This document shows positions 1 through 43,777 of a stretch of 64,000 nt of DNA, piece after piece. The notes beneath the pieces are model-generated. The model was not told where the DNA came from. It did not search any database and saw nothing but the letters and a program-made list of their open reading frames with translations. The stretch is from assembly GCA_963772365.1 (NCBI GenBank), contig CAVYXA010000001.1:64001-128000 (forward strand). Reading direction: 5' to 3'. Source of the stretch: an uncultured Verrucomicrobiae bacterium (GTDB taxonomy: Bacteria; Verrucomicrobiota; Verrucomicrobiia; Chthoniobacterales; UBA10450). A program made the position numbers and the translations under genes. Every line of letters starts with the position of its first letter. Position 1 is the stretch's first letter.

Positions 1-67
1 CACGAAAGAATGCCCGCGTCGCCTTCGCGTCGTCGGAATAAATCAAAGTATGAATTGAAGTGATCAT
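1..67 (-). CDS. VOC/glyoxalase-family protein, N-terminal part only (runs off window)
   Basis: Minus strand from ATG at 67 reads MITSIHTLIYSDDAKATRAFFR, a typical VOC-family N-terminus; lies downstream of arsM; not in ORF track. Confidence 0.6.
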   Translation of the reverse strand, partial: MITSIHTLIYSDDAKATRAFFR

Positions 68-27172: not shown

Positions 27173-28411
27173 ATGAGCACAAACCTGATCTCCAGCGGCA
27201 CGACGGCGCGCGAGAAAATTAATTTACGCACGCCGGACGTGATGGCGGCCGTGCAGGAACAGGTCGAATCCCATTATCGCAGCGACATCGTCGATAAAAT
27301 CCGGCGGGCCGGCGGAATTATTTCGGTAGGAAATACCACTGTGCGGCTGGCGAAACAATTCGGCTTTTGCTACGGCGTCGAGCGCGCCATCGATCTCGCC
27401 TATGCCGCGCGCAAGGTGTTCAAGGATCGCCGGCTCTTCATTGTCGGCGAAATCATTCACAATCCGGAAGTCAACCAGCAGATCGCCGCGCTCGGTATCA
27501 AGAATCTCACTGGAAAAAACAAAGAGGCTGATATCTCCGATCTCGGCCCAGATGATGTCGTCATCGTGCCGGCGTTCGGGACGGAGTTGGCGATCCAGCG
27601 ACAAATCAAAGATCGCGGCTGCCAGATTGTCGATACTACCTGCGGCGACGTGATGAGCGTCTGGAAACGGGTTCGCAAGTATGCCAGCGAATCGGCTACT
27701 TCCATCATTCACGGCAAAGCCGAACACGAAGAGACCAAAGCCACCAGCTCGCGCGCTCTCGGCGACGGCAATGGACATTATCTCGTCGTGCTCACTCTGG
27801 CCGAGACCGATTACGTTTGCGATTACATCCGGCACGGCGGGGATAAGCATGCGTTTCTGGAGAAATTCAAAGGCGCCTACTCGGCGGGATTCGATCCCGA
27901 TATCCACCTCCAAACTGTCGGCGTAGCCAATCAAACCACCATGTTGCGCGGCGAGACCGAGGAAGTGCAGCGAAGAGTCCGGAAAGCAGTTGTCGATCGT
28001 GACGGCCCCGAGCTAGCCCAAAAGAATTTCCGATTCTTCGACACCATCTGCGGCGCAACACAGGAACGTCAGGATGCGTTGCGCGAGCTTCTTAACGTGT
28101 CGATGGATTTGCTCCTGGTCGTCGGCGGTTACAACAGCTCCAACACATCGCATCTGGCCGAGATGGGCGAAGAGAAATTGCCCACCTATTTTGTACTCAA
28201 TGCCTCACGACTCGTTTCCGCGAACGAGATCAAGCATTACGATCTACACGAGAAACGCGAAGTCGTTTCCCATTTCTGGCTCCCGCCCGGCCCAGCCGTC
28301 ATTGGCATCACCGCCGGCGCATCCTGCCCGAACAATCTGATTGAAGAAACATTGATCCGCCTCTTCGAGCTACGCGGTATTTCGCGCGACCAACTTGATC
28401 TCGCCGCGTAA
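27173..28411 (+). CDS. ispH: 4-hydroxy-3-methylbut-2-enyl diphosphate reductase
   Basis: FGFCYGVERA, EIIHN, DTTC, NQTT, DTICGATQERQ, SSNT, GITAGASCP. Confidence 0.95.
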   Translation: MSTNLISSGTTAREKINLRTPDVMAAVQEQVESHYRSDIVDKIRRAGGIISVGNTTVRLAKQFGFCYGVERAIDLAYAARKVFKDRRLFIVGEIIHNPEVNQQIAALGIKNLTGKNKEADISDLGPDDVVIVPAFGTELAIQRQIKDRGCQIVDTTCGDVMSVWKRVRKYASESATSIIHGKAEHEETKATSSRALGDGNGHYLVVLTLAETDYVCDYIRHGGDKHAFLEKFKGAYSAGFDPDIHLQTVGVANQTTMLRGETEEVQRRVRKAVVDRDGPELAQKNFRFFDTICGATQERQDALRELLNVSMDLLLVVGGYNSSNTSHLAEMGEEKLPTYFVLNASRLVSANEIKHYDLHEKREVVSHFWLPPGPAVIGITAGASCPNNLIEETLIRLFELRGISRDQLDLAA

Positions 28412-28493
28412 AATCGCCTACAGCAGTTTATTTGAAGGATATTGGCATAAATCTGCGTTGCCGCGTTGATGTGCGCTGATTATTCTAAATGAC

Positions 28494-28697
28494 ATGAACT
28501 TGCGCTTGGTAGTGGAGCATGATCCGGAGAGCAAGCGCTGGGCGGCTTTCTTTCCGGAACTGCCTGGGTGCGCTTCGGCAGGTGATACCGAGCAAGAAGC
28601 GATCGACAACGCAAAGGAGGCGCTCGAACTCTGGTTTGAACCCACTCCGGCTGCGGTTCCTCCCGGCGCTAAGGTCGTGGAAGTTGCTCTTACGTGA
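28494..28697 (+). CDS. hicB: HicB-family antitoxin
   Basis: FPELPGCASAGDTEQEAIDNAKEALELW. Confidence 0.9.
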   Translation: MNLRLVVEHDPESKRWAAFFPELPGCASAGDTEQEAIDNAKEALELWFEPTPAAVPPGAKVVEVALT

Positions 28698-28912
28698 GCG
28701 AGCGGTTTCCAGTGCGCAGCGCTCGTGACGTGATTCGGGTGTTGCGCAAGCATGGTTTCGCAATGCTCCGCCAGCGCGGTAGCCATCAGAAATGGCGACA
28801 TCCCAACGGGCGGCAAGTAATCGTCGCCGTGCACGGCAACAAACCGATTCCGATCGGTACATTAAAAAGTATCATCGAAGGAAGCGGATTAACCGTGGAG
28901 CACTTTCGATAG
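28694..28912 (+). CDS. hicA: HicA-family mRNA interferase
   Basis: LRKHGF..RQRGSH..VAVH..IPIGTLKSI. Confidence 0.9.
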   Translation: MSERFPVRSARDVIRVLRKHGFAMLRQRGSHQKWRHPNGRQVIVAVHGNKPIPIGTLKSIIEGSGLTVEHFR

Positions 28913-28916
28913 AGGC

Positions 28917-29025
28917 GGCATGACCGCTGGCGCATCCTGTCCCGAATAACCTGATTGAAGAAACATTGATCCGCCTCTTCGAATTACGCGGCATTTCGCG
29001 CGAACAACTCGGACTCGCGGCGTAG
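28917..29025 (+). repeat. Diverged duplicate of ispH 3' end (28304-28411)
   Basis: 32-bp identical core ctgattgaagaaacattgatccgcctcttcga; other differences mostly at third codon positions. Confidence 0.9.
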
Positions 29026-29037
29026 GGATCATGCTTC

Positions 29038-29066
29038 AAAACCAAATTCGCGACGGCGAATTTGGT
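29038..29066 (-). terminator. Terminator at distal end of CRISPR array
   Basis: accaaattcgc-gacg-gcgaatttggt hairpin with T-run on minus strand. Confidence 0.7.
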
Positions 29067-29074
29067 CTTTCTTT

Positions 29075-29466
29075 GCGCCTCAGCATTTCTGAAATCGCGA
29101 TGACTGCGATAACGCTGCGGACGACGAGTATAACGAGAACGTATTCCCGCCTCAGCATTTCTGAAATCGCGATGACTGCGATTTTGCCCTTGGACGGCGC
29201 TGGCGAGCACTCTCTGCCGCCTCAGCATTTCTGAAATCGCGATGACTGCGATTGCTGCCGCGCCTGCTACCTGGCCGATACTACTTATCCGCCTCAGCAT
29301 TTCTGAAATCGCGATGACTGCGATGATACTTCCAAGATCGATAACGATCAATGGCATGTCCGCCTCAGCATTTCTGAAATCGCGATGACTGCGATCCGGC
29401 AGCCAAACAGTGGGCTACAACGATTTCGCGCCGCCTCAGCATTTCTGAAATCGCGATGACTGCGAT
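29075..29466 (-). CRISPR. CRISPR array, 6 x 36-bp repeats and 5 spacers (34-36 bp); repeat 5'-ATCGCAGTCATCGCGATTTCAGAAATGCTGAGGCGG-3'
   Basis: Repeats start at 29075, 29147, 29217, 29289, 29360, 29431; the 29075 copy has a terminal mismatch and an adjacent terminator, so transcription is inferred on minus. Confidence 0.97.
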
Positions 29467-29596
29467 CCACCCTGTCAATAACCGGCAACTTCCCGTGGTG
29501 TCGTTAGGCGAATATCGAGCGCACTCTCGAAATGCGATGGCCTATCGCGGTCAAAAGTCATTTGCGAGTCGGAGGACGCAACGAATTTCAGAGGTA

Positions 29597-29760
29597 ATCG
29601 CAGCCGCGCGAGCGCTGCCGCAGTAGCGCCACAGCAATCTCGCGCTCGCTAGTCTCGTTTATCGCGATTTCAAAGAGCTGCTTCTCCAATGGCGGAAGAG
29701 AAGTGGTCGGTGGCAGAGGCCTTTCGGCTTTGTTTGCCAAGCTAATTAAAGAGCGCGTTA
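29597..29760 (-). ncRNA. Predicted tracrRNA (boundaries approximate)
   Basis: Anti-repeat at 29661-29680 (12-bp perfect plus GCUG), CCGCC at 29691-29695 in a stem-loop, and a 9-nt match at 29597-29605. Confidence 0.75.
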
Positions 29761-29804
29761 GAACGATTGGCAAATTCGAAATCAACTCCGAAAGCTTTCG
29801 CGAG

Positions 29805-30095
29805 CTAGATCACAGTGACGCGCGTTCTGACTGTGTAAGGTAAACCCATCGCTTCGATGATCAGGCTTGCGTCATTTGAGCTTGGTCCAAGCGAGACGAA
29901 CAAAACCTGGTCTTCATCATGATTCAAGATTGGGTGAAGAGATGTTTTCAGATTTGCCATCCTCAGATCGTCGAGCGGACATTCGAAAACAGAGTACTGC
30001 AAGCGCACGCCAAAGCCTTCGAGGACACGCGCGACCTGTCGCAAACGTTTCGGGTTGCAAATATCGTAACTGACGAGATAGCGGAGCCGGCTCAT
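29805..30095 (-). CDS. cas2: CRISPR-associated Cas2
   Basis: YLVSYDI..KRLRQV..GVRLQYSVFEC; ATG 30095 overlaps cas1 stop. Confidence 0.95.
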   Translation of the reverse strand: MSRLRYLVSYDICNPKRLRQVARVLEGFGVRLQYSVFECPLDDLRMANLKTSLHPILNHDEDQVLFVSLGPSSNDASLIIEAMGLPYTVRTRVTVI

Positions 30096-31903
30096 CGCGT
30101 TGTGAAACCGTGGTAAGCGATAGCCTCGCCGCGCACGAAGCGCCAAAGTTGTCGCGCCTGCACTTCGAGCATTCGTCGATAAGCCATCTTGTAGACGAAC
30201 TGCGGATGACTTACTTCCGCGTCGAGCCGGCGGAACCATGCCTCCCAAAATGCTTTTCGACCTCGCTCGTTTAGAAAAGTGCCGCTGGCGCTGCGAATGA
30301 AATCGTCTGCGCCGACTTCGCCGCGATTCACGAGTGAGATGGCGACGCTGTCTGCGATGAGGGGACGAAATTCTTCCATCAAATCCAGCGCGAGCGCGGG
30401 CCGGCCGTAGCGCGGCTGATGCATGAAGCCGAGAAACGGATCGAGTCCCACTGCGTCGCAGACGCCGGTGAGTTCTTTGGCCAGCATGGAGTAGCCTAAC
30501 GAGAGCAACGCGTTCGCGGGATCGCGAGGCGGACGGCGATTGCGTCCACGCCAGTCGAATTTCCACGATTCTTTCAACATCGATTCGAACTGTTCGAAGT
30601 AGAGCGCGGCGGCCGTGCCTTCGATGCCGAGCAATTCCGTCATGTCATGGGCCGACTCCGTGGCGTCGCGAAAACCGGCAAGCAATTGCAAGACGCGATC
30701 AGGCACATCGCCATTGCGCATGAGCATGGTGCGTTGATTGTGAATTTTCGCGCGCACCACTTCACGCGCGAGTTGCAGACGCACGCCGGGGAGTTCGAAG
30801 AGACGATATTGTCCGCGGCGCGCGTCCACGCCACTCACCGGCAAGGCGCGCAACGTCCCGAGAAAACGCCCCGCTGGGCTAAAGTAAGCGACGTCGATTC
30901 CGAGCTCGAGGCACGTCTCGATCGCCTGCGCGGTTAATTGAATCGCGCCATAACAGTAAATCGCGCGTAGTTGATGCCCAGGCAGCTTGCGCGCTTCCGC
31001 GCCCTTCACCGAGACGACAAACTGATCGCCGCGCTGTCCAATTTGCGCTCCCGGAGTTTGCACCACCAACACTTCGCCGTCGTCGTGCTCCGGGCGCGGC
31101 GGCTGTAGAGTATGGGCCTTCTTTCCAGATTCGGCTGCGAATTCGAGCGCTTCGAAAATCTGCTCGCGCACATGATCCTCCGCTGGCGCGCTGAACCCGA
31201 AGCGAAGTTGATCATCCGGCTTCGCGGCTTTGCCCGCTCGCGCCCACCACCAGGACTCGTTAGGCAAACAGATCGGATACGCCGAACAATACAGACATCG
31301 CGGATCGTTTTTCAGCGGAGGCGGGCACTTGCCACTCGCCGCGACTGCGCGCGTTTGCTCGATGGTAGTTAGAACTTTCGCAAACAACTCTTCACTCAAT
31401 TCCAGTGGCACACGCCGCTTCTCCGCTGCGTAATAAATTGCGGCGCGCGTGGCGTTGATACCGATCTCGCGCAGCAAGAGCGCATGCGCGGCTACCTGAA
31501 TGGCATCGGGCTCTTTCGCAACACGCTCGCCGTTGTTATCGCGTCGCGCCGACCCTTTTTTGTAATCGACAATCTCCGCGCCGTCCGGACCGCCCTCGAT
31601 GAGATCGACGACGCTAATCAATCCCAGCGACGCGCTTTCCAACCGCAAACTTCGCAGCGTCGCGCCTTCAGGAAGATTTTCGCCGAGCGCTTTCAGTTTC
31701 TCTTCATCGACACGCGAGGCGCGATCGACATTGCGATGCGCATGCGACCCTTCGATCGTATCGGCGTTCTCCTGAAAAATATTCTCGACCCACTGATAAT
31801 AAAAAAGCCGCGGGCAATAGATGAAATTATGCAACCGCCGCACCGGCATCGGCGGCTGCGATTCAAGCCCGCCTTGCGTTTGCACCGGCGCATCGATTGA
31901 CAT
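30092..31903 (-). CDS. cas1: Cas4-Cas1 fusion
   Basis: YCPR..VDYKKG..CLYCS..ICLP (Cas4) plus GIEG, RNRRPPRDPAN, GLDPFLGFMH, LDLMEEFRP (Cas1). Confidence 0.95.
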   Translation of the reverse strand: MSIDAPVQTQGGLESQPPMPVRRLHNFIYCPRLFYYQWVENIFQENADTIEGSHAHRNVDRASRVDEEKLKALGENLPEGATLRSLRLESASLGLISVVDLIEGGPDGAEIVDYKKGSARRDNNGERVAKEPDAIQVAAHALLLREIGINATRAAIYYAAEKRRVPLELSEELFAKVLTTIEQTRAVAASGKCPPPLKNDPRCLYCSAYPICLPNESWWWARAGKAAKPDDQLRFGFSAPAEDHVREQIFEALEFAAESGKKAHTLQPPRPEHDDGEVLVVQTPGAQIGQRGDQFVVSVKGAEARKLPGHQLRAIYCYGAIQLTAQAIETCLELGIDVAYFSPAGRFLGTLRALPVSGVDARRGQYRLFELPGVRLQLAREVVRAKIHNQRTMLMRNGDVPDRVLQLLAGFRDATESAHDMTELLGIEGTAAALYFEQFESMLKESWKFDWRGRNRRPPRDPANALLSLGYSMLAKELTGVCDAVGLDPFLGFMHQPRYGRPALALDLMEEFRPLIADSVAISLVNRGEVGADDFIRSASGTFLNERGRKAFWEAWFRRLDAEVSHPQFVYKMAYRRMLEVQARQLWRFVRGEAIAYHGFTTR

Positions 31904-31941
31904 AGCTAACTATCTTAGCTAATCTCGTCGCTGTGACGCAA
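31897..31941. promoter_or_regulatory. Overlapping divergent promoters with palindromic operator
   Basis: Plus strand TTGACA(31897)-17-TAATCT; minus strand TTGCGT-18-TAAGAT; TAGCTAA-N5-TTAGCTA at 31903-31921. Confidence 0.7.
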
Positions 31942-32202
31942 GCGACCATTCATCAGGCAAAGACGCACCTCTCCAAACTCATTCGCAAAGCGCTCGACGG
32001 CGAAGAAGTGATTATCGCCAACCGCGACAAGCCACTTGTTCGGCTGGAAGCCGTAGCAGGTGGATCAAGCTCCCGCCGCATCGGCGGTCTTAAGCGCTGG
32101 GCGAAGCGACGCCCGCTGGAGTTGAATGATCCTAAAGCAAACCGGAGGATCGAGCGCGACTTTGCCCGAACTGACCGGCGCGATCCGCTGTTGTGGAAGT
32201 AA
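31933..32202 (+). CDS. Phd/YefM antitoxin
   Basis: TIHQAKTHLSKLI..GEEVIIA..KPLVRL. Confidence 0.9.
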   Translation: MTQATIHQAKTHLSKLIRKALDGEEVIIANRDKPLVRLEAVAGGSSSRRIGGLKRWAKRRPLELNDPKANRRIERDFARTDRRDPLLWK

Positions 32203-32208
32203 GAGCAA

Positions 32209-32598
32209 ATGCTGCTCGATACCCACGCGCTCTTGTGGATGGTGCTGGATGACCCGCGGTTGTCCCGCCGCGCTCGCTCTGAAATCGAGAAAGCTGAGGG
32301 CCTTGCTTATTCAATTGCGAGTTTCTGGGAAATTGCGCTCAAGTTGAGCATTCCGAGATATCAAAAGAAGCTGGCCTTGCCCGAAGCATGGCATCAAGAC
32401 TTGTTAGGGGAGATGCGCGCGATTGGCGCCGAGCGGCTCGAAATTCAACCGCAACACTGTCGCCATTTGCAGGACCTGCCCTGGCATCATAAGGATCCAT
32501 TCGATCGCATGTTGATCGCCCAGGCACAGGTCGAGCGATTGCCGATCCTAAGTGCCGATCGACGTTTCAAAAAGTATGGAATCAAAATAGTCTGGTAA
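32209..32598 (+). CDS. vapC: VapC/PIN-domain toxin
   Basis: LLDTHALLW, SIASFWEI, HHKDPFDRMLIAQA, LSAD. Confidence 0.92.
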   Translation: MLLDTHALLWMVLDDPRLSRRARSEIEKAEGLAYSIASFWEIALKLSIPRYQKKLALPEAWHQDLLGEMRAIGAERLEIQPQHCRHLQDLPWHHKDPFDRMLIAQAQVERLPILSADRRFKKYGIKIVW

Positions 32599-32621
32599 GA
32601 TGCGTCAACTGCGCACCGACC

Positions 32622-32766
32622 CTCGCCGAGGGCTCCTGGCTTTCTTCATCGACACGCAGCGAGGCGCGATCGGGATTGTAATGCGCATGAAATTATGCAA
32701 CCGCCGCGCCGGCATCGGCGGTTGCTGCTCAAGGCCGCCTTGCGTTTGAACGGGGGCATCGCTCAT
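32622..32766 (-). pseudogene. Displaced, decayed copy of cas4-cas1 5' end
   Basis: MSDAPVQTQGGLEQQPPMPARRLHNF vs intact MSIDAPVQTQGGLESQPPMPVRRLHNF; internal deletion, then DRAS..RVDEE remnant. Confidence 0.9.
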
Positions 32767-32781
32767 GCTCGATGTGCGCTT

Positions 32782-33285
32782 TTAGGAATGAAAACCGATT
32801 CGGCGCTCCGGCTTTTCCGGCGGCGGCAGCAAGAGCGGACGCAGTTTTTGATACAAATCGCGCAGCGCGGCGTCGTGCGTGAGCAAAGTTTTATCAATTT
32901 CATTCAAGCGCCCTTCCAAAGTCGCGTCGGCCAGCAACTCGCGTCGCATTTTAACAAAGGCGCGCACGACATAAACGCTCATGGCAATGGCCTGCGGGCT
33001 GTTCAGAAGCGTCGCGGCCATGATCGCCCCATGCTCGGTGAATACCCTCGGCAACTTGCGACGTCCGCCCCGGCCTTTTGATGTTCCAATTTGGAATATC
33101 AAATCGGCAAACTCCTTGCGTGTAAGCATGAACGAAAAGTCGGGAGGAAAGCGGTGCTCGTTTCGATTGATTGCCTTGTTGAAGTTCCCGGTCGTAACCC
33201 CGTAAAGCAGCGCCAGATCGCTATCGAGAACAACTGGCTGGTCGCGAACTGTGAAGATGCGTGGAAGGAGGGGATCAGCTTTCAA
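32782..33285 (-). CDS. ORF6N-domain DNA-binding protein
   Basis: VVLDSDLALLYGV..RN..RFPPDF..FTEHGAIMAATLLNS..VVRAFV. Confidence 0.88.
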   Translation of the reverse strand: MKADPLLPRIFTVRDQPVVLDSDLALLYGVTTGNFNKAINRNEHRFPPDFSFMLTRKEFADLIFQIGTSKGRGGRRKLPRVFTEHGAIMAATLLNSPQAIAMSVYVVRAFVKMRRELLADATLEGRLNEIDKTLLTHDAALRDLYQKLRPLLLPPPEKPERRIGFHS

Positions 33286-33299
33286 ATTATCCTATCCGA

Positions 33300-35355
33300 T
33301 CACGACAAAGTGTCGGCTGCTGCCGCTTTATTCATGCGAGCAGCTAATCTCGCTCGATTGATCTGCATGCAACGAGCCCATTGAAGGCTCTTCAATCCAA
33401 GAAAGAGTGCCTTGCTACTGAGCAATTGGATCTGCTCCTCGCCGCGGACGGCATCGGGCACACGCGCGATGTCGTTCTTCGCAAATTCACGCGCGAAGCG
33501 CAGCAGCTTCAGGCTCTTTTCGTCAATGGGCTCTTCAACATTCCAAAGCAAGCGCGCGATACCGGCGAAATCGCGGAAGTAATTCGGCTGCCTTGTCTCG
33601 CGCGAGACGCTGCCGCTTGGGATTTCATCAAAAATTAATTGCGGCGGCTTGTCGCCATACTTGCGCTTCTCACGCGCGCGCAAATCGATCGGCGCGTCTC
33701 CTGCGCCATCAGATGCTTTCGTCTTGCGGCCTTTTCGACCTTTGTAGCGAACTTCTCCGGAAATCCGTTCGGTGCGCAGACGCGGGAAAAATTCCCACAT
33801 CCGTGGGTCGGCGACGGCACGCAAACCGATGTTGATGGCGGCGTTTAAATCCGCATCGACGATCTTCGCAGCGAGACGGTTTTGCTGCGCTGGAACAGCG
33901 GCGATTGGAACAAAGATTTGCCCGCCTTGCTTCGGCAAAAGGAGTGTCAGTTTGGGTGCGGATAAGCCCTCGTGTTTTTTCTGCCACTCCGTTTCGAGAA
34001 GTTGTTGTGCGTTGCGCAAATCGATTGCGAGCTGTCGCATTTGCTGCTGTTCTGTTGTTTCTTCCTCTCCATCTTTGATACGCAACCGAAAACACCACGG
34101 CATGCGCTCTTCGAATCCCGCCGTCACTTCCTCAGCGCGGAACCCAACAATTCCGCTGCGGGAGCAGAACTGCGAAGAATACGCCGCCGGCACATCGAGC
34201 ACGGGAATGCCGAATGGCTCACAGAGCTCGCGTACTTTGTCGCGAATCGCGCGGTGGCACCATTTCATCAGCCGTCCGTTTTCCTGCGGCGATCTGCCTT
34301 GGGTTGCGCGGTAACGCGAGAGGTCTTCAATCGCCACGAAATCCACCGGCTTATCGCGGAATTTCTCGTAGACGCCATGCTGGTCCCGCTCATGCCAAAG
34401 CTGCGCCTTATTCGGCGGCGGCTTCGTCAACCTGACGCCGAGTGCCTGCGCCAGAATCATATGCGCCGATTGATTCACGCGTTGCGTTTTTAACTCGTCG
34501 AGTTTATCCACGAGACCGGGACACGGATCGCTGAAATCGCGGCGAATCCATCTTTTCACCTGCGCCTCGATCCATTCGCCTTTTTCCAATTGCTCGAAGG
34601 CGAAATATCTGCGCTCCGCCTGATTCAAGGACTGAAAGCGGCGGCGGAGCTCCTCAACTTGCTCGATGCGCATGAGCGAAAGGCCGCGCTGGCCAGCAAG
34701 CAATGGTTTGTGTTCTTCGTCTTGAGTCTGTGTCTGTGCCAAGCCGTGCAGTCGTCCTTCCTTTTCGCGGTCTTGCACACGCTCCCAACTCCATCGGCGT
34801 TTTCGCAGCGGCAGAACGCGGTCGGCAATATTCAACAGCAGCGTCGGTAGTTCGGAAATCAAACGCGAGTGCTCGTCACGAAGGGCCATCTGCAATTGCG
34901 TCCAATTCTTTTCGCCTGCTGTGTCACGAATTGTTTTTGGAATCCACTGTTCGCCCGGCGCTTCGCCATTCGGTTTCTGCGCTGGCGCGTTCCCCTTCTC
35001 ATCCTCAAATCCGCACGTTTGCCGCAATTCTTTCAGCATTCCGTCCCGTCGCGCACCGTCATTCATGCCCACGCGCCAGCGCGCTATCCTTGCCAGTCGC
35101 GATTGCGCGCGGCGAGCGACGACAATCAGCTTGTCGTTTTGCTCAGGGAAAGAGAACTCGCGCAAGATCGCGTCGATTTGAGAGCGCCAGTTTTCCGGAG
35201 GCGCTTCATTCGAATGAAGAACAAATTCCCACGCCCATCGATCGCCAAGGAGCGCGCACATCAGGTTCCGGCATTCAGCCGTTTCGCTTTCAGAAGCCGA
35301 ACGCCCGCGGTCGCCATACAGTTCTTCGCGCCAGGCGAACTCACTCTTTTGGTCA
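33300..35355 (-). CDS. cas12b: Cas12b C-terminal part (RuvC-II, RuvC-III), after frameshift
   Basis: GQRGLSLMRIEQ, IEDLSRY, AYSSQFC, ADLNAAINIG. Confidence 0.85.
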
Positions 35356-37968
35356 CGGGTCGAGCTTCGACCGCGCTCTCCACACCATTGTGTCGCTACC
35401 AGGCAACCGAAGTTTTCGCAGCTCGCGCAACGCCACGCGCCATGGTGCTTCCTCACCCGTGGTAATCGCGCGCGAAACGATCGTGTGGTTACTGTTGCCG
35501 CTTTCAAACACACCATCCAGCCTTGCCTCCTGCATCGCCCACGAGTCAGCGTGGAGACCAAAATCCACGCTACCGAAGGTGAAACGCTGCACGAGTTGCT
35601 CTAGTGCGGGCGGCGGATCTTTCGGTTGCTCGAACGAGTGCAAGAGGTAGAAGAAACGTTGTTCGGAGCCTTTTCCGAAACTACGGAACTGTTTGCTCCA
35701 GACGTGCGCCTTACCGATCTGCGCGATTAATTTCTCCGGCTGAATTTCAACAGGAAATGTGAGCTGCGCGCCGTAGCGCTCAATGCCGTCTTTATCTTCG
35801 CGCGCTCTGGGTTGAAGTGTGATCCGGCAATTGCCGAAGTCCTGGAGTGGCGGCTCGTGTAGCTTGAGCGCGTCGATCATGGGCGGCAACCACGGTGCAG
35901 CATCGAGACTCTCTTCGCCATCGCGCCGGACCTGATCACGACGCAAACGTGGCGCCGAATAGCTGATGCGCGTCATGACAGGTTTCCATTTTGCTCCATC
36001 GCGAACCGCAACGCCGGCGGTGAAGGAAAGCGCCCCGGGCTTGTCAGCCGCGCCACGCGCATTCGCACTGAGACTGCGCTCGTGTGTCGATCCCCACTTT
36101 CCGCCCGCGGCAGATTTTTTTGGAAAGATAAAATAGCGCGGCGACTTCGTTGGATGCGCGGGCGTGAAATGAATCGGCCGCTCTTTGTCGCGCAGTTCGC
36201 GACGGGTCTCAGTGTATTGCGCCCACGCTTCAACTGGATCACCCGCGTGAAACTCCTTACTGCCTTTCTCTTTCCAAATGCCGTGATTCGCGGGTTTCGT
36301 CAGCTCCTCGTAGAAATGCGCACTCCCGAAATCCAGCCGGTGCTCGCCCTGCTCTTTCTTTACGATTTCCCATAAGTCATCTTCCGTCGGCTCACTTTTT
36401 GCCGCGAGATCGCGCCAGGCATCGCGCACTGCATGCCATCCGCGCAGCGTCCGTTCGCGCAGTGTGTATTCGCGCAAATGATCAGGAAGCTGAACGTCCG
36501 CGCGCGCAATCGCCTCAGTAATGAACGGTCGCGCAAGCCAATCATCATCCGGCGAATCAACCTCACCCAAGTGGCCGAGATCGCTGAACAACACCGAGAC
36601 CAGTCGATCGATCCGCGCATCGTCGCGGAATCCCGGGAGACTCGGCTTCGCGGCCATTCCTTCCTCGGCGCTGCCGGCACGGCCTTCGCTTTCCATTGCC
36701 TGCAAATCTTCGCGCAGTGCGGCTGCCTCAGCCTCGCGCCTAATCGTGTCCTGGTAGTAGCGATGCGGCGAAGTAATCGCTGCGACAAATGCTGCATGGT
36801 CAAACTCCTTCCATGGCGCTTGTTGTGCCTCGTCATCGTTCTCGAATACAAGACGTGTGAAATATGGAAAGTGAGGTGTGTCGTCGACGCGCGATGCGGC
36901 AATGCTGTCCTCGACTGGTTGCTTGTCTTTCGCGTCACATAATGCAGCGCTGGCTGCACGAAAAGCCGCTAACGTCTCGGCGCAAGGAATGTGTCGAAAC
37001 AACGCTGCCGCTGGATAGACGCCACTCGGCCGACGTCCAGGCGCCGGGATGCACAAGGCATCGCTGGGTTGAGTGATCGAATCGTGAGAGCGACTTTTTC
37101 GATCAGGCCCGTGAGCAATCATCTCCAATTGCGCGGAAGCGCCCATGAGCGAAGGGAATTGCTTGCTGACCTCATCCCAATATTTGCGCAGTAACTTGGC
37201 TGCCTTAGTGCCGGTGAGTTTTTCTTTAGGCGGAGTTGTTAGAAACAAGCCGAGGTCGATCTCGGCGGCGCGGGATATTGCTTCATCGTCTGGCATCGAC
37301 CGAAACTCCCGCACGAGACGTTGACGCTTTATTTCTTGAAGCGACGCCATGTCTTTTGGCGTTTTGTCGTGCCTGCCTTTCGGATTGCAGAAAAATCCCA
37401 GTCGATCATTTGCGAGCCAACTGAGATCGCTCTTGTCTGCTTCCTCCAAGAGTTGAAGCAGTGCCGCCGCTCGTTGCGTATCGCTCGCGCGGCTTGACGC
37501 GAGAACTGTAGATATGCAGCGCGCGAACGCGTCCTTTGACTTTTGCGTCGGATCTATCACTACTCCGACTGCGGGCGCAAGCGTCTTGCACCAACCTTCG
37601 AATGATTTCCCTCGACGTTCTGCGGTGACCGCTGTGTTGCTGACTGCATCGCGCCAGGATTTGATCGCTCGGATCATTGCTCGTGCGGTTTGAGCTGCTT
37701 CGGCGATTGCTTTAACGCGCGCTGCCTCTGTTTTGTGCTTGGGATTTCTTCGCGCGGAATCCGCCGCCACTTTCAGCGCGATTGCTTCAAACGCCGCATC
37801 ATCCATTCCACGAGACAACGCCGAGAGCGCAAGCGTGTAATAATTCACTGCGTCCTGAAACAGCTCGTGATGATGCCAAAGGACTTCCAGCGGCAGTTCG
37901 CCAGTGACGTTCCCTTTGCGATCAACGGTTTCGACTTTCGCAACGCGCCCTTGGTAAATGCGGTTCAT
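35353..37968 (-). CDS. cas12b: Cas12b (type V-B effector) N-terminal part through RuvC-I
   Basis: MNRIYQGRV..LWHHHELFQDAVNYY N-terminus typical of verrucomicrobial/planctomycete Cas12b; FTPAHP..SPR, APRLRRD, SVDFG, LRLPG; locus has cas4-cas1, cas2, tracrRNA and 36-bp repeats. Confidence 0.88.
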   Translation of the reverse strand: MNRIYQGRVAKVETVDRKGNVTGELPLEVLWHHHELFQDAVNYYTLALSALSRGMDDAAFEAIALKVAADSARRNPKHKTEAARVKAIAEAAQTARAMIRAIKSWRDAVSNTAVTAERRGKSFEGWCKTLAPAVGVVIDPTQKSKDAFARCISTVLASSRASDTQRAAALLQLLEEADKSDLSWLANDRLGFFCNPKGRHDKTPKDMASLQEIKRQRLVREFRSMPDDEAISRAAEIDLGLFLTTPPKEKLTGTKAAKLLRKYWDEVSKQFPSLMGASAQLEMIAHGPDRKSRSHDSITQPSDALCIPAPGRRPSGVYPAAALFRHIPCAETLAAFRAASAALCDAKDKQPVEDSIAASRVDDTPHFPYFTRLVFENDDEAQQAPWKEFDHAAFVAAITSPHRYYQDTIRREAEAAALREDLQAMESEGRAGSAEEGMAAKPSLPGFRDDARIDRLVSVLFSDLGHLGEVDSPDDDWLARPFITEAIARADVQLPDHLREYTLRERTLRGWHAVRDAWRDLAAKSEPTEDDLWEIVKKEQGEHRLDFGSAHFYEELTKPANHGIWKEKGSKEFHAGDPVEAWAQYTETRRELRDKERPIHFTPAHPTKSPRYFIFPKKSAAGGKWGSTHERSLSANARGAADKPGALSFTAGVAVRDGAKWKPVMTRISYSAPRLRRDQVRRDGEESLDAAPWLPPMIDALKLHEPPLQDFGNCRITLQPRAREDKDGIERYGAQLTFPVEIQPEKLIAQIGKAHVWSKQFRSFGKGSEQRFFYLLHSFEQPKDPPPALEQLVQRFTFGSVDFGLHADSWAMQEARLDGVFESGNSNHTIVSRAITTGEEAPWRVALRELRKLRLPGSDTMVWRARSKLDP

Positions 37969-38182
37969 TCTTTAGAGAAGCTACTCGTTGATGCCGGTTA
38001 GCAGTCAGCGGAAACAGTAATGTTTGTTTACCAAAGGAGCGGAGATTTGTCTCCGCTTTTTTGTTGGGCGCGCAAACTAATGAGTCTCGGTAGAAGTTCG
38101 CGATGACGTGGCCGCGCACGCGGAGGGCGCCCACGTTAGCCTCACACGCAACTTGTGTCTCTCGTGCGAAACTAGTTTGGAT

Positions 38183-39052
38183 ATGGCACGGGCAATTTGG
38201 AAAGGCGGAATCAGTTTTGGGCTGGTTAATATTCCAATCGCGCTTTATCCGGCGACACGGCGCGAAGAGCTGAAGTTTCGGTTGCTTCGTAAGAGCGATT
38301 TGAGTCCGGTGAATTACAAACGGGTGGCGGAAAAGGACGGCAAGGAAGTTCCCTGGAACGAGATCGTCAAAGGTTACGAGTACCAGACGGGAAAATATGT
38401 TGTCCTGAAGGAGGAAGATTTTGAGCGGGTCGATATCGAGGCGACCCAGACGGTGGATATTCAGGATTTTGTCGATCTTGACGACATCGATCCGATGTAT
38501 TTTTACAAACCGTACTATCTGGAGCCGCAAAAGGGCGGCGATAAAGCTTACGCGCTGTTGCGCGATTCGCTGGAGGAAAGCAAAAAGGTCGGGATCGCCA
38601 AGGTGGTGATCAAGACCCGGCAATATCTGGCCGGCGTAAAACCGGAGGATGGCGCGCTCGTTTTGGAGCTGATGCATTTCGCCGATGAACTTCGGGACAC
38701 GAGCACGCTCCACATTCCAAAAAAGACCGAAGTGGGTAAGCGCGAAATGAATATGGCCAAATCGCTCATCGATAACATGAGTGCGAAATGGGACCCGGAA
38801 AAATATAAAGACGAATATAAGGAAGCGCTGATGGAAGTGATTGAGGAAAAAGTTGAAGCTGGCGGGAAAGAGATCGAAGAAAAACCGAAGAAAGCGCCGA
38901 AGCCGACCAAGGTGATCGATCTGGTGTCGGTCCTACAAAAGAGCGTTGAAGAAAGCGGCGGTGCGAGCCGCACGGGCACAGCGAGCCGCACTGGCAGAAA
39001 GAAGGCAACAAAATCTCGAAAACACCCGCAGCGTCACAAAAAGGCGGCGTGA
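38183..39052 (+). CDS. ku: NHEJ Ku protein
   Basis: RAIWKGGISFGLVNIP, IVKGYE, PYYLEP, KAYALL, VIDL; basic tail. Confidence 0.95.
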   Translation: MARAIWKGGISFGLVNIPIALYPATRREELKFRLLRKSDLSPVNYKRVAEKDGKEVPWNEIVKGYEYQTGKYVVLKEEDFERVDIEATQTVDIQDFVDLDDIDPMYFYKPYYLEPQKGGDKAYALLRDSLEESKKVGIAKVVIKTRQYLAGVKPEDGALVLELMHFADELRDTSTLHIPKKTEVGKREMNMAKSLIDNMSAKWDPEKYKDEYKEALMEVIEEKVEAGGKEIEEKPKKAPKPTKVIDLVSVLQKSVEESGGASRTGTASRTGRKKATKSRKHPQRHKKAA

Positions 39053-42450: not shown

Positions 42451-43242
42451 ATGAAGCGCGCTGTTTCAGTCGTCGGTGCCATTCTCATGGCGCAATCGCT
42501 GTCGGCGCAGGAATTCAAAGATTTCGGCAAGGGGCGTTTGAACGGTTCGCCGCGACACGGCGAATGGGTCGACATCAAATCGGGCGAGCGCACCATTAAG
42601 GCGTTTGTTGTATATCCCGAGCGCAAAGAGAAAACGCCGGCTGTTCTTGTCATTCACGAGATCTTTGGTCTGACCGATTGGGTGCGCAGTTTGTGCGATG
42701 AACTGGCGGAGAATGGAGTAATTGCAATTGCGCCCGATTTGCTCAGCGGCCAGAAATTTGAAGATGTCGATGGTGCCCGCAAGGCGATTTCGGCTTTGCC
42801 GAAGGAGCAGGTAAAATCCGATCTCGATGCGACGGCGGATTACGCGCTGAAGATTCCCGCTTGCAGTGGAACTTTGGCCGTTTGCGGTTTTTGCTGGGGC
42901 GGAGGAGTAACTTTCATGTATGCGAACGAAAATCCAAAGCTCAAGGCGGCTTATTCATTTTACGGAACCGCGCCGGATGAAGCGTCGAAGGTCGCGAACA
43001 TTTCGTGTCCGGTTTACGGATTTTACGGCGAGAAGGACGAACGCGTGGATGCGACGATCCCAAAAGCGGAAGAGTTAATGAAAGCTGCCGGCAAGAAGTA
43101 TGAGCCGGTAATTTACGAGGACGCCGGGCATGGTTTCATGCGCTCAGGCGATCCGTCAAATCCCAACGTGCGCGAGACCGACAGAAAAGCGCATGACGAA
43201 GCCTGGGCCCGCTGGAAGAAACTGCTCAAGCAATTGCCGTAG
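42451..43242 (+). CDS. Dienelactone hydrolase family protein
   Basis: IHEIFGL, GFCWGG, AGHGFM. Confidence 0.9.
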   Translation: MKRAVSVVGAILMAQSLSAQEFKDFGKGRLNGSPRHGEWVDIKSGERTIKAFVVYPERKEKTPAVLVIHEIFGLTDWVRSLCDELAENGVIAIAPDLLSGQKFEDVDGARKAISALPKEQVKSDLDATADYALKIPACSGTLAVCGFCWGGGVTFMYANENPKLKAAYSFYGTAPDEASKVANISCPVYGFYGEKDERVDATIPKAEELMKAAGKKYEPVIYEDAGHGFMRSGDPSNPNVRETDRKAHDEAWARWKKLLKQLP

Positions 43243-43259
43243 CCAGGAACATCAGCCAG

Positions 43260-43284
43260 GTAGGGCGATTGACCTCAATCGCCC
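43260..43284 (+). repeat. GTAG REP left of RAYT
   Basis: GTAG followed by GGCGATTG-acct-CAATCGCC hairpin. Confidence 0.75.
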
Positions 43285-43294
43285 GTCACCGCTA

Positions 43295-43777
43295 GTGAAA
43301 CGCGACTTGAAGAGGTTGCCGGTCCGAAAACAACTCGACCATTCAATCCATTTTCAGGCGCGATTTGGCGCCACCTATTTCATCACACTTTGTTGTCAGA
43401 TGCGTTGCAAAAACCAACTGTGTAACACTCGGGTAGCATCTATTATTTTCGAGACCGCGTGCAGATATCATGCGTCGCGACGATTCCATCTGAAGTTGCT
43501 TCTTCTGATGCCCGATCATTTGCATCTCCTTGTCGCCCTGGCCGGTGATAGTGAACTATCGGGTTTGATCCGCGACTTTAAACGAATCACAGCGCGAATG
43601 GCGAAAATCGTTTGGCAGCGAAATTTCTTTGATCATCGATTGCGCCACGATGAAAGCGAGATCGAGAAAGCAGAATACATTCGGCGAAACCCCATCCGTG
43701 CGGGCTTGATCGACGCAGGGGTCACATGGCCATACATGATTGAGATTGACGAGATTGAAGCGCGAGCGGGTTATTAG
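43295..43777 (+). mobile_element. REP-associated tyrosine (HUH/Y1) transposase
   Basis: YFITLC, MPDHLH, WQRNFFDHRLR, YIRRNPIRAGL; flanked by inverted REPs. Confidence 0.88.

Follow-up and report, generated by a model that had tools for sequence, protein, structure and literature searches.

A backward phd-vapC insertion as a possible source of the start codon and promoter of cas4-cas1 in a type V-B CRISPR-Cas locus

Introduction

Type V-B CRISPR-Cas systems are laid out as Cas12b, a Cas4-Cas1 fusion and Cas2. The operator of the toxin-antitoxin (TA) genes phd-doc of P1 consists of two 8-bp palindromes 13 bp apart (PMC1802561). A spacing of 29 bp between divergent start sites is enriched in E. 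coli (bioRxiv 10.1101/2020.01.31.928960), and at the bidirectional promoter PacrA/acrR, the autorepressor AcrR represses both genes (PMC12825309). Operons can be non-contiguous, with genes of the opposite strand inside them (PMC7154746), and restriction-modification genes have been described as inserting with long target duplication (PMC2853133). The CreTA/CreR systems use Cas proteins guided by crRNA-like RNAs to repress the toxin or the cas promoter (reviewed in PMC12737573).

Here we describe a type V-B operon in which phd-vapC lies backwards at the cas12b/cas4-cas1 junction. The initial annotation of this DNA had proposed that a TA operator controls overlapping divergent promoters for phd-vapC and the spacer-acquisition genes, coupling dormancy to adaptation. 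Our main reading, to which we assign a probability of about 0.5, is that the backward phd-vapC module supplies the ATG of cas4-cas1, that leaderless transcription of this gene likely starts from the reverse face of the module's promoter, and that repression by Phd (or Phd-VapC) is a likely by-product.

Results

Gene order and the phd-vapC module

The window, by which we mean the whole 64,000-nt stretch analysed, contains the type V-B gene set (cas12b, a cas4-cas1 fusion, cas2 and an array). Along the minus strand, cas12b is followed by ORF6N, a 5' remnant of cas4, vapC-phd (on the opposite strand), cas4-cas1, cas2, an anti-repeat and the array:

29076..29467, minus strand: CRISPR array of 5 spacers between 6 repeats; the repeat has no other copy in the assembly
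29661..29672, minus strand: 12-nt anti-repeat between cas2 and the array, a tracrRNA candidate picked by eye
29805..30095, minus strand: cas2, 96 aa, intact (PF09827, TIGR01573)
30092..31903, minus strand: cas4-cas1 fusion, 603 aa, intact (NF049935, 595 bits against a cut-off of 560)
31933..32202, plus strand: phd/yefM-family antitoxin, 89 aa (PF02604, 31.6 bits against a cut-off of 29.8; TIGR01552)
32209..32598, plus strand: vapC PIN toxin, 129 aa (PF01850, above the Pfam cut-off)
32623..32766, minus strand: copy of the cas4-cas1 5' end, stranded there (a 75-nt block 88% identical to 31821-31895, plus a second block)
32782..33285, minus strand: ORF6N-domain gene between cas12b and the remnant (PF10543; equal position in locus L003)
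33300..37968, minus strand: cas12b as two overlapping frames, 37968-35353 and 35561-33300 (NF033949 positions 1-705 and 702-1252)

The profile matches bear out the identities first given to phd, vapC, cas4-cas1 and cas2. The antitoxin gene directly precedes vapC with a 6-nt gap, the gene order of type II Phd/YefM-VapC pairs, and these two genes are the only ones inside the insert, which holds no mobility gene. Residues D4, E41, D96 and D117 of VapC, presumably the catalytic acidic residues of the PIN active site, are invariant in all six aligned sequences. In structure prediction, the Phd-VapC complex model scored 0.42 and the best of three controls 0.00, a result that lends weak support to binding between antitoxin and toxin and may reflect likeness to solved TA pairs; runs agreed in at least 93% of contacts, and partner pLDDT was at least 59. 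Of 78 solved complexes, 51 attained the mark applied to such models, as did 2 of 108 mismatches. One caveat is that passing scores of 0.60 or less came from only 5 of the 78 solved complexes but included all 4 passing mismatches of 180. A search by sequence yielded no relative of solved structure for VapC, and for Phd a single match at chance level.

At the search threshold, no copy of the CRISPR repeat was seen outside the array. Nor did any spacer show a self-targeting match outside the array (more than 16 nt exact, or 17/18), and an Rfam scan of 28400-38200 gave no match. The module does not fit a CreTA-type RNA toxin with a crRNA-like antitoxin, as both of its parts are proteins and no repeat copy was seen outside the array at that threshold.

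The CRISPR island (28412-38100) has ispH on one side and Ku on the other, two genes that lie next to each other in genome G192 of the same family; in the same-genus genome G301, ispH is followed by neither the island nor Ku. At the island edge is another TA pair:

28494..28912, plus strand: hicB-hicA, between the 3' end of ispH and an 88% ispH copy (28917-29024)

Together with both flanking ispH copies, this pair spans 28304-29024 of the window. Pairs of this hicBA family lie backwards at the cas12b/cas4 junction of loci L011, L057 and L199; the window pair is 72% identical in DNA to those of L011 and L057. At 43130-43777, the window also contains an IS200-like Y1 transposase (RAYT-like) gene (PF01797).

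Insertion at the cas12b/cas4 junction

Working cas4-cas1 begins ATG TCA ATC GAT, whereas ATG AGC GAY opens the gene in most close relatives and also the remnant. This difference indicates that the first codons of the working gene derive from the -35 region of the TA module:

31895..31903, minus strand: opening codons of cas4-cas1 (ATG TCA ATC), borrowed from the TA module as its -35 context in reverse complement

The stranded copy occupies the native operon position, 15 nt past the ORF6N stop. Its 144 nt carry a 79-nt deletion and two small indels, and its frame stops after 53 codons. The first block is 88% identical to the working copy, compared to 74-81% for five close relatives. Over codons 3-26, the two copies differ by six synonymous and two nonsynonymous changes. 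Such a predominance of synonymous differences suggests that they first diverged as working alleles, with the indels of the remnant arising later. The remnant may have arrived already damaged. Read from these sequences, phd-vapC was inserted here, which left the old cas4 start stranded, and is flanked by a direct repeat (88%) of the 5' end of cas4. This origin, recorded in a decayed repeat upstream, was missed in the initial annotation.

We compiled 149 loci (68 and 80 from two sets, plus L139), of which 110 include both the end of cas12b and the start of cas4; at 95% identity, these group into 84 junction clusters. Named relatives in the first set are mostly Verrucomicrobiota, and the host probably belongs there as well. 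The gap between cas12b and cas4 is at most 120 nt in 49 clusters (same-family G192 among them), 120-300 nt in 8 and more than 300 nt in 27, while a gap of more than 300 nt between cas1 and cas2 is seen in only 3 of 80. The insert thus has the features of a long target duplication, with a direct repeat of more than 30 bp, an empty site in relatives (49 of 84 clusters) and no mobility gene. Such arrangements are frequent in this genome: we counted 131 near-tandem repeat pairs, of which 44 passed a size filter, and in 6 of 20 hand-picked regions the repeats enclose a TA toxin family. At L069, L070, L071 and L072, all in this genome, TA pairs lie between the 3' end of a gene and its 81-94% copy.

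A putative Phd operator

The perfect palindrome TAGCTAA-N5-TTAGCTA (31903-31921) occurs once in the 3.35-Mb genome, based on an assembly-wide search. It is better read as two 8-bp palindromic sites, 13 bp apart centre to centre:

31902..31909: putative Phd operator site 1, ATAGCTAA, with variants at the equivalent place in close homologs
31915..31922: putative Phd operator site 2, TTAGCTAA, a perfect palindrome found in 15 of 15 close phd promoters, including that of the window

Site 1 overlaps the last base of the phd -35 box as well as bases 1 and 2 of the cas4-cas1 ATG, site 2 is the source of the first three bases (TAA) of both -10 boxes, and jointly they span both predicted -10 boxes and the cas +1. 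The palindrome covers the cas -10 box, as had been noted; it does not merely abut the phd -10 box but overlaps it by 2 nt, and it takes in the first base of the cas ATG.

Palindromes with 7-bp arms are not rare by chance (83 in the window, 7 of them AT-rich), and we count this one as real because it is conserved upstream of phd homologs rather than because of its arms. Fourteen close phd homologs, from the same family and 58-80% identical, have no cas gene within 1.5 kb on either side; in every one, TTAGCTAA and TTGAC precede the predicted leaderless start. Across 42 phd loci, the sites track antitoxin position 7, two places before the conserved AK: His goes with TTAG/CTAA sites (31/31) and Gln with CTGG/CCAG sites (9/10, one tie), while one locus has Thr; as these loci are related by kinship and are not independent, the tracking may reflect few evolutionary switches. 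The correspondence between N-terminal His or Gln and operator runs through phd promoters L089-L118 and L249-L260, raising the possibility of a one-residue specificity switch. Conservation in 14 of 14 close homologs, the P1 phd-doc geometry and the tracking of an antitoxin residue make it very likely that the palindrome is a Phd operator. The TA operator first proposed is thus supported, with binding by Phd predicted.

Overlapping divergent promoters

Two predicted promoters overlap in the interval between the start codons:

31897..31933, plus strand: predicted leaderless phd-vapC promoter, TTGACA-17-TAATCT-7-GTG, a layout common to cas-free homologs
31903..31941, minus strand: predicted reverse leaderless cas4-cas1-cas2 promoter, TTGCGT-18-TAAGAT-8-ATG

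On the plus strand, TTGACA (31897-31902) is followed after 17 nt by TAATCT (31920-31925) and, another 7 nt on, by GTG (31933). On the minus strand, TTGCGT (31941-31936), which corresponds to phd codons 2-3 read backwards, is followed after 18 nt by TAAGAT (31917-31912) and 8 nt later by ATG (31903). The start codons are separated by 29 bases, an interval with no SD-like motif. The initial description of this interval proved accurate, with each promoter element where it had been placed. The 16S tail of this genome has a normal anti-SD.

The two -10 boxes, TAATCT and TAAGAT, are reciprocal and have the key T, A and T positions on each strand. With an 18-nt spacer and an 8-nt gap, the reverse promoter lies at the edge of the usual range. 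A scan for E. coli-type consensus promoters called neither the phd nor the cas4-cas1 promoter, because TAATCT and TTGCGT each match the consensus at three of six positions. A first genome-wide start profile was too noisy for judging SD versus leaderless starts and was superseded by a comparison of in-frame with out-of-frame starts. In this genome, the pattern TTG-16..18-TAnnnT-5..9-RTG was found at 59 of 4361 in-frame candidate starts, compared to 3 of 4437 out-of-frame ones. TTGCGN is the -35 element in 13 of 60 hits, cas4 counted among them, and the reverse promoter of cas4-cas1 fits the pattern. The 29-bp distance between the two predicted starts also matches a divergent spacing enriched in E. 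coli (bioRxiv 10.1101/2020.01.31.928960).

Parts of the reverse promoter are also present in the 14 cas-free homologs. TTGACAT provides a reverse ATG in 10 of them, opening frames of only 7-39 codons, and TAnnnT lies 8-9 nt upstream of the reverse ATG in 7. The full TTG-18-TAnnnT-8-ATG is present in 3, with frames of 9-39 codons and no divergent gene, and in 0 of 29 members of a more distant phd set. The reverse -10/ATG appearance is largely built into the TA promoter, wherever that promoter sits. Because 3 of the 14 cas-free homologs carry the complete pattern, its presence alone is no proof of use. We nonetheless think the reverse promoter is probably in use, based on the leaderless pattern, the intact cas4-cas1-cas2 genes and the contrast with the inserts described next.

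Bridge frames and read-through from cas12b

In an alternative that resembles a non-contiguous operon, transcription of the adaptation genes would still start at the cas12b promoter and cross vapC-phd in antisense, and translation would begin without an SD, either at the borrowed ATG or at Met19. In that case, derepression of phd-vapC would lower cas4-cas1 expression (through polymerase collision and antisense pairing), an effect opposite in sign to the one first proposed. A scan with 7 terminator-like sites versus 8.0 expected showed no convincing terminator between cas12b and cas4-cas1, and the antisense stretch, with 196 C and 189 G, is not rich in C. Read-through from cas12b may therefore occur. 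The cas4-cas1 gene of relatives lies inside the operon and has neither an SD nor a -10, and the arrangement fits the non-contiguous operon described in PMC7154746.

Four other backward TA inserts with a cas4 remnant (L011, L199, L028 and L057, the last with no cas12b in view) also retain cas4-cas1 in the upstream operon. Each has a stop-free frame that leads from the remnant over the TA genes and terminates at a TGA overlapping the new cas4 start:

L011, 6995-7639: bridge frame
L199, 3995-4534: bridge frame
L057, 6486-6998: bridge frame
L028, 6444-7004: bridge frame

None of these four inserts shows a cas-direction promoter. The three hicBA inserts (L011, L057 and L199) share one left junction and may represent a single event; their spacers (121, 46 and 106 nt) and a 90-nt deletion all preserve the bridge frame. 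When codons were resampled synonymously with the right frame given, the frame stayed open in 21-100% of trials (L011, L057 and L028). Openness of the antisense frame is therefore likely by chance, and the signal is the frame match at both ends.

In the window, a bridge frame is ruled out by 7-9 stops in every frame. The locus is thus the converse of the four inserts, with the promoter pattern present and the bridge frame absent. A transcript from cas12b would have to cross ∼700 nt that is untranslated, with stops in all frames, in a genome that has two Rho-like genes (one at 509 bits against a cut-off of 509.45). In such an RNA, the palindrome would fold over the first base of the AUG. As relatives with a backward insert all keep the bridge frame, we regard read-through as unlikely here.

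Condition of the CRISPR-Cas genes

Another view is that the adaptation genes are effectively silent, in a decaying island where the promoter overlap has no consequence. The frame of cas12b switches once, near 35,358, leaving no intact single-effector frame, and the split suggests that the system may be decaying. No frame switch was seen in 25,679 bases of other genes of this genome, so the break may be real; however, split genes in other family assemblies (ispH in G491, Ku in G301) mean that it could be an assembly error. The array has 5 spacers, compared to ∼30 repeats in G192. Against decay, cas4-cas1 and cas2 extend over 2.1 kb without a stop or frame break, versus three indels in the 144-nt remnant. 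The dN/dS of cas4-cas1 relative to seven relatives is 0.05-0.10, a value that covers the whole branch and not only the time since insertion. The gene has 33 private synonymous codons versus 8 private amino-acid changes, the latter at columns where the seven relatives agree. These data make silence of the adaptation genes improbable.

TA genes at the junction across type V-B loci

TA-family ORFs (hand-picked, E 0.01 or better) were found in 18 of the 27 filled clusters, or 18 of 84 overall, and belong to the HicAB, MNT-HEPN, Fic, PemK, ParE-like, PIN and AbiEii families. Most junction inserts are co-oriented. In a Cas4 tree of 23 rows, many of whose forks are weakly supported, filled loci are scattered among empty ones; the row nearest the window across these weak forks, L169 (89% over Cas4-Cas1), has a co-oriented MNT-HEPN pair instead. 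A backward or divergent phd-vapC was seen in 0 of 84 other junction clusters, and phd is paired with cas4 in 0 of 14 close phd homologs. Conservation of the arrangement, proposed initially as a check, is hence not found, and the arrangement looks like an accident of one lineage and not a conserved design.

These counts bear on the circuit originally envisaged, in which antitoxin loss under stress or infection frees VapC and switches on spacer acquisition. The geometry permits such a circuit, TA-type genes are common at the junction, and the second TA pair lies at the island edge. Yet the pairing recurs in none of the clusters or close homologs, co-orientation is seen in the nearest relative and in most other inserts, the TA promoter already carried the reverse elements, and free VapC would likely hinder translation of cas mRNA. 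The 0/84 count, together with reverse elements built into the promoter, does not support an evolved dormancy-adaptation circuit. We reject an evolved and conserved TA-cas4 circuit on the basis of the cas-free homologs with the same promoter and of the 84 clusters, and consider a selected stress circuit slightly less probable than silence.

Two other features of these loci were observed. A conserved motif lies ∼33 nt before cas4-cas1 in L025-L027, L030-L032, L034, L036, L037, L039, L043 and L066, and consists of TTGACA, a GC-rich arm, a TTATAGT-like loop and a complementary arm ending at ATG. With just 8 nt from TTGACA to the -10-like hexamer, this is not a normal promoter. A small gene starting MKLRLDLL, overlapped by a 210-aa frame, recurs at the cas12b/cas4 junction:

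L007, 6331-6998: MKLRLDLL gene
L034, 6334-6969: MKLRLDLL gene
L045, L050, L051 and L053: further copies

The copies in L007, L034 and L053 gave no useful Pfam family.

Discussion

Our favoured reading, in which the inserted module supplies the start codon and promoter of cas4-cas1, can be laid out as a series of steps. phd-vapC inserted backwards between cas12b and cas4-cas1, stranding the old cas4 start, and cas4-cas1 took its new ATG-TCA-ATC from the -35 box of the module, read backwards. The reverse face of the symmetric TA promoter would then fire, producing a leaderless cas4-cas1-cas2 mRNA. Phd dimers on the two sites would block both directions. Loss of antitoxin would lift both together, and increased transcription of the adaptation genes would be a side effect of the insertion. 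To this extent we keep the earlier idea that antitoxin loss raises the adaptation genes, as a proposal; the evolved coupling of dormancy to adaptation is set aside, given its absence from 84 clusters and the pre-existing elements. Because the TA promoter contains the reverse elements at every site it occupies, the wiring would be an accident of insertion, that is, promoter capture. It was likely kept because the adaptation genes stayed expressible, and not built to tie dormancy to spacer uptake.

A bolder version is doubtful. It holds that a type II antitoxin directly represses spacer acquisition, with Cas4-Cas1-Cas2 made when Phd is lost, and that this is a real advantage in the lineage. More widely, the V-B cas12b/cas4 junction would be a slot for TA addiction modules, in which backward inserts are kept only if cas4-cas1 is re-wired, either through a bridge frame or through capture of a promoter.

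Should the reverse promoter prove real, a stretch of 45 bp puts the CRISPR adaptation module under a new repressor in one step, with promoter and start codon both taken from an inserted selfish element. The comparison of loci adds that TA-type genes turn over at one V-B junction (18/84 clusters), with backward inserts keeping the frame open. The pairing itself is known from one genome, in which the effector gene is split, and this limits its significance. In titles, abstract openings and the available parts of PMC12737573 and PMC11951105, a search outside subscription papers and supplements, we found no type II antitoxin that represses cas genes via a shared operator. TA inserts at the cas12b/cas4 junction were likewise not found in titles and abstract openings, and subscription papers or supplementary locus tables could hold such inserts.

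Every part of the arrangement has precedent, in Phd operators, autorepressed bidirectional promoters, TA genes in cas loci and non-contiguous operons. The locus resembles other type V-B loci in its genes and their order, its array and its anti-repeat, and differs in its split cas12b and in having ORF6N, a cas4 remnant and a backward TA pair between cas12b and cas4-cas1. As in P1 phd-doc and E. coli yefM-yoeB, an antitoxin of the Phd/YefM family is associated with two short palindromes over the promoter, and their 13-bp centre-to-centre spacing is that of phd-doc (PMC1802561). Unlike those operators, the one here has an AGCT core (not GTAC), a PIN/VapC toxin and a predicted leaderless transcript, and a second gene begins inside it.

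Like the restriction-modification insertions of PMC2853133, the insert is a selfish module with direct repeats of more than 30 bp, no mobility gene and an empty site in relatives. Here, however, the cargo is a type II TA pair and the duplicated piece is a gene start. Moreover, the repeats differ mostly at synonymous sites, which points to recombination between alleles. The locus shares with the non-contiguous operon of PMC7154746 the presence of opposite-strand genes within an operon, but the interspersed genes are a TA pair, and relatives bridge them with a stop-free frame.

Known bidirectional promoters also have reciprocal -10 boxes that arise by symmetry, and a single repressor over both directions; the predicted starts here are 29-30 nt apart (bioRxiv 10.1101/2020.01.31.928960; PMC12825309). 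At our locus, in contrast, the symmetry would come from the TA operator and the second gene would have been captured by insertion, its start codon taken from the -35 box, in a promoter predicted from sequence alone. Finally, CreTA and CreR likewise involve a TA nested in a cas locus and a transcriptional link between TA and CRISPR-Cas (PMC12737573). The published CRISPR-TA links that we found run the opposite way, with Cas repressing the toxin, whereas in the locus described here a protein antitoxin would repress cas genes.
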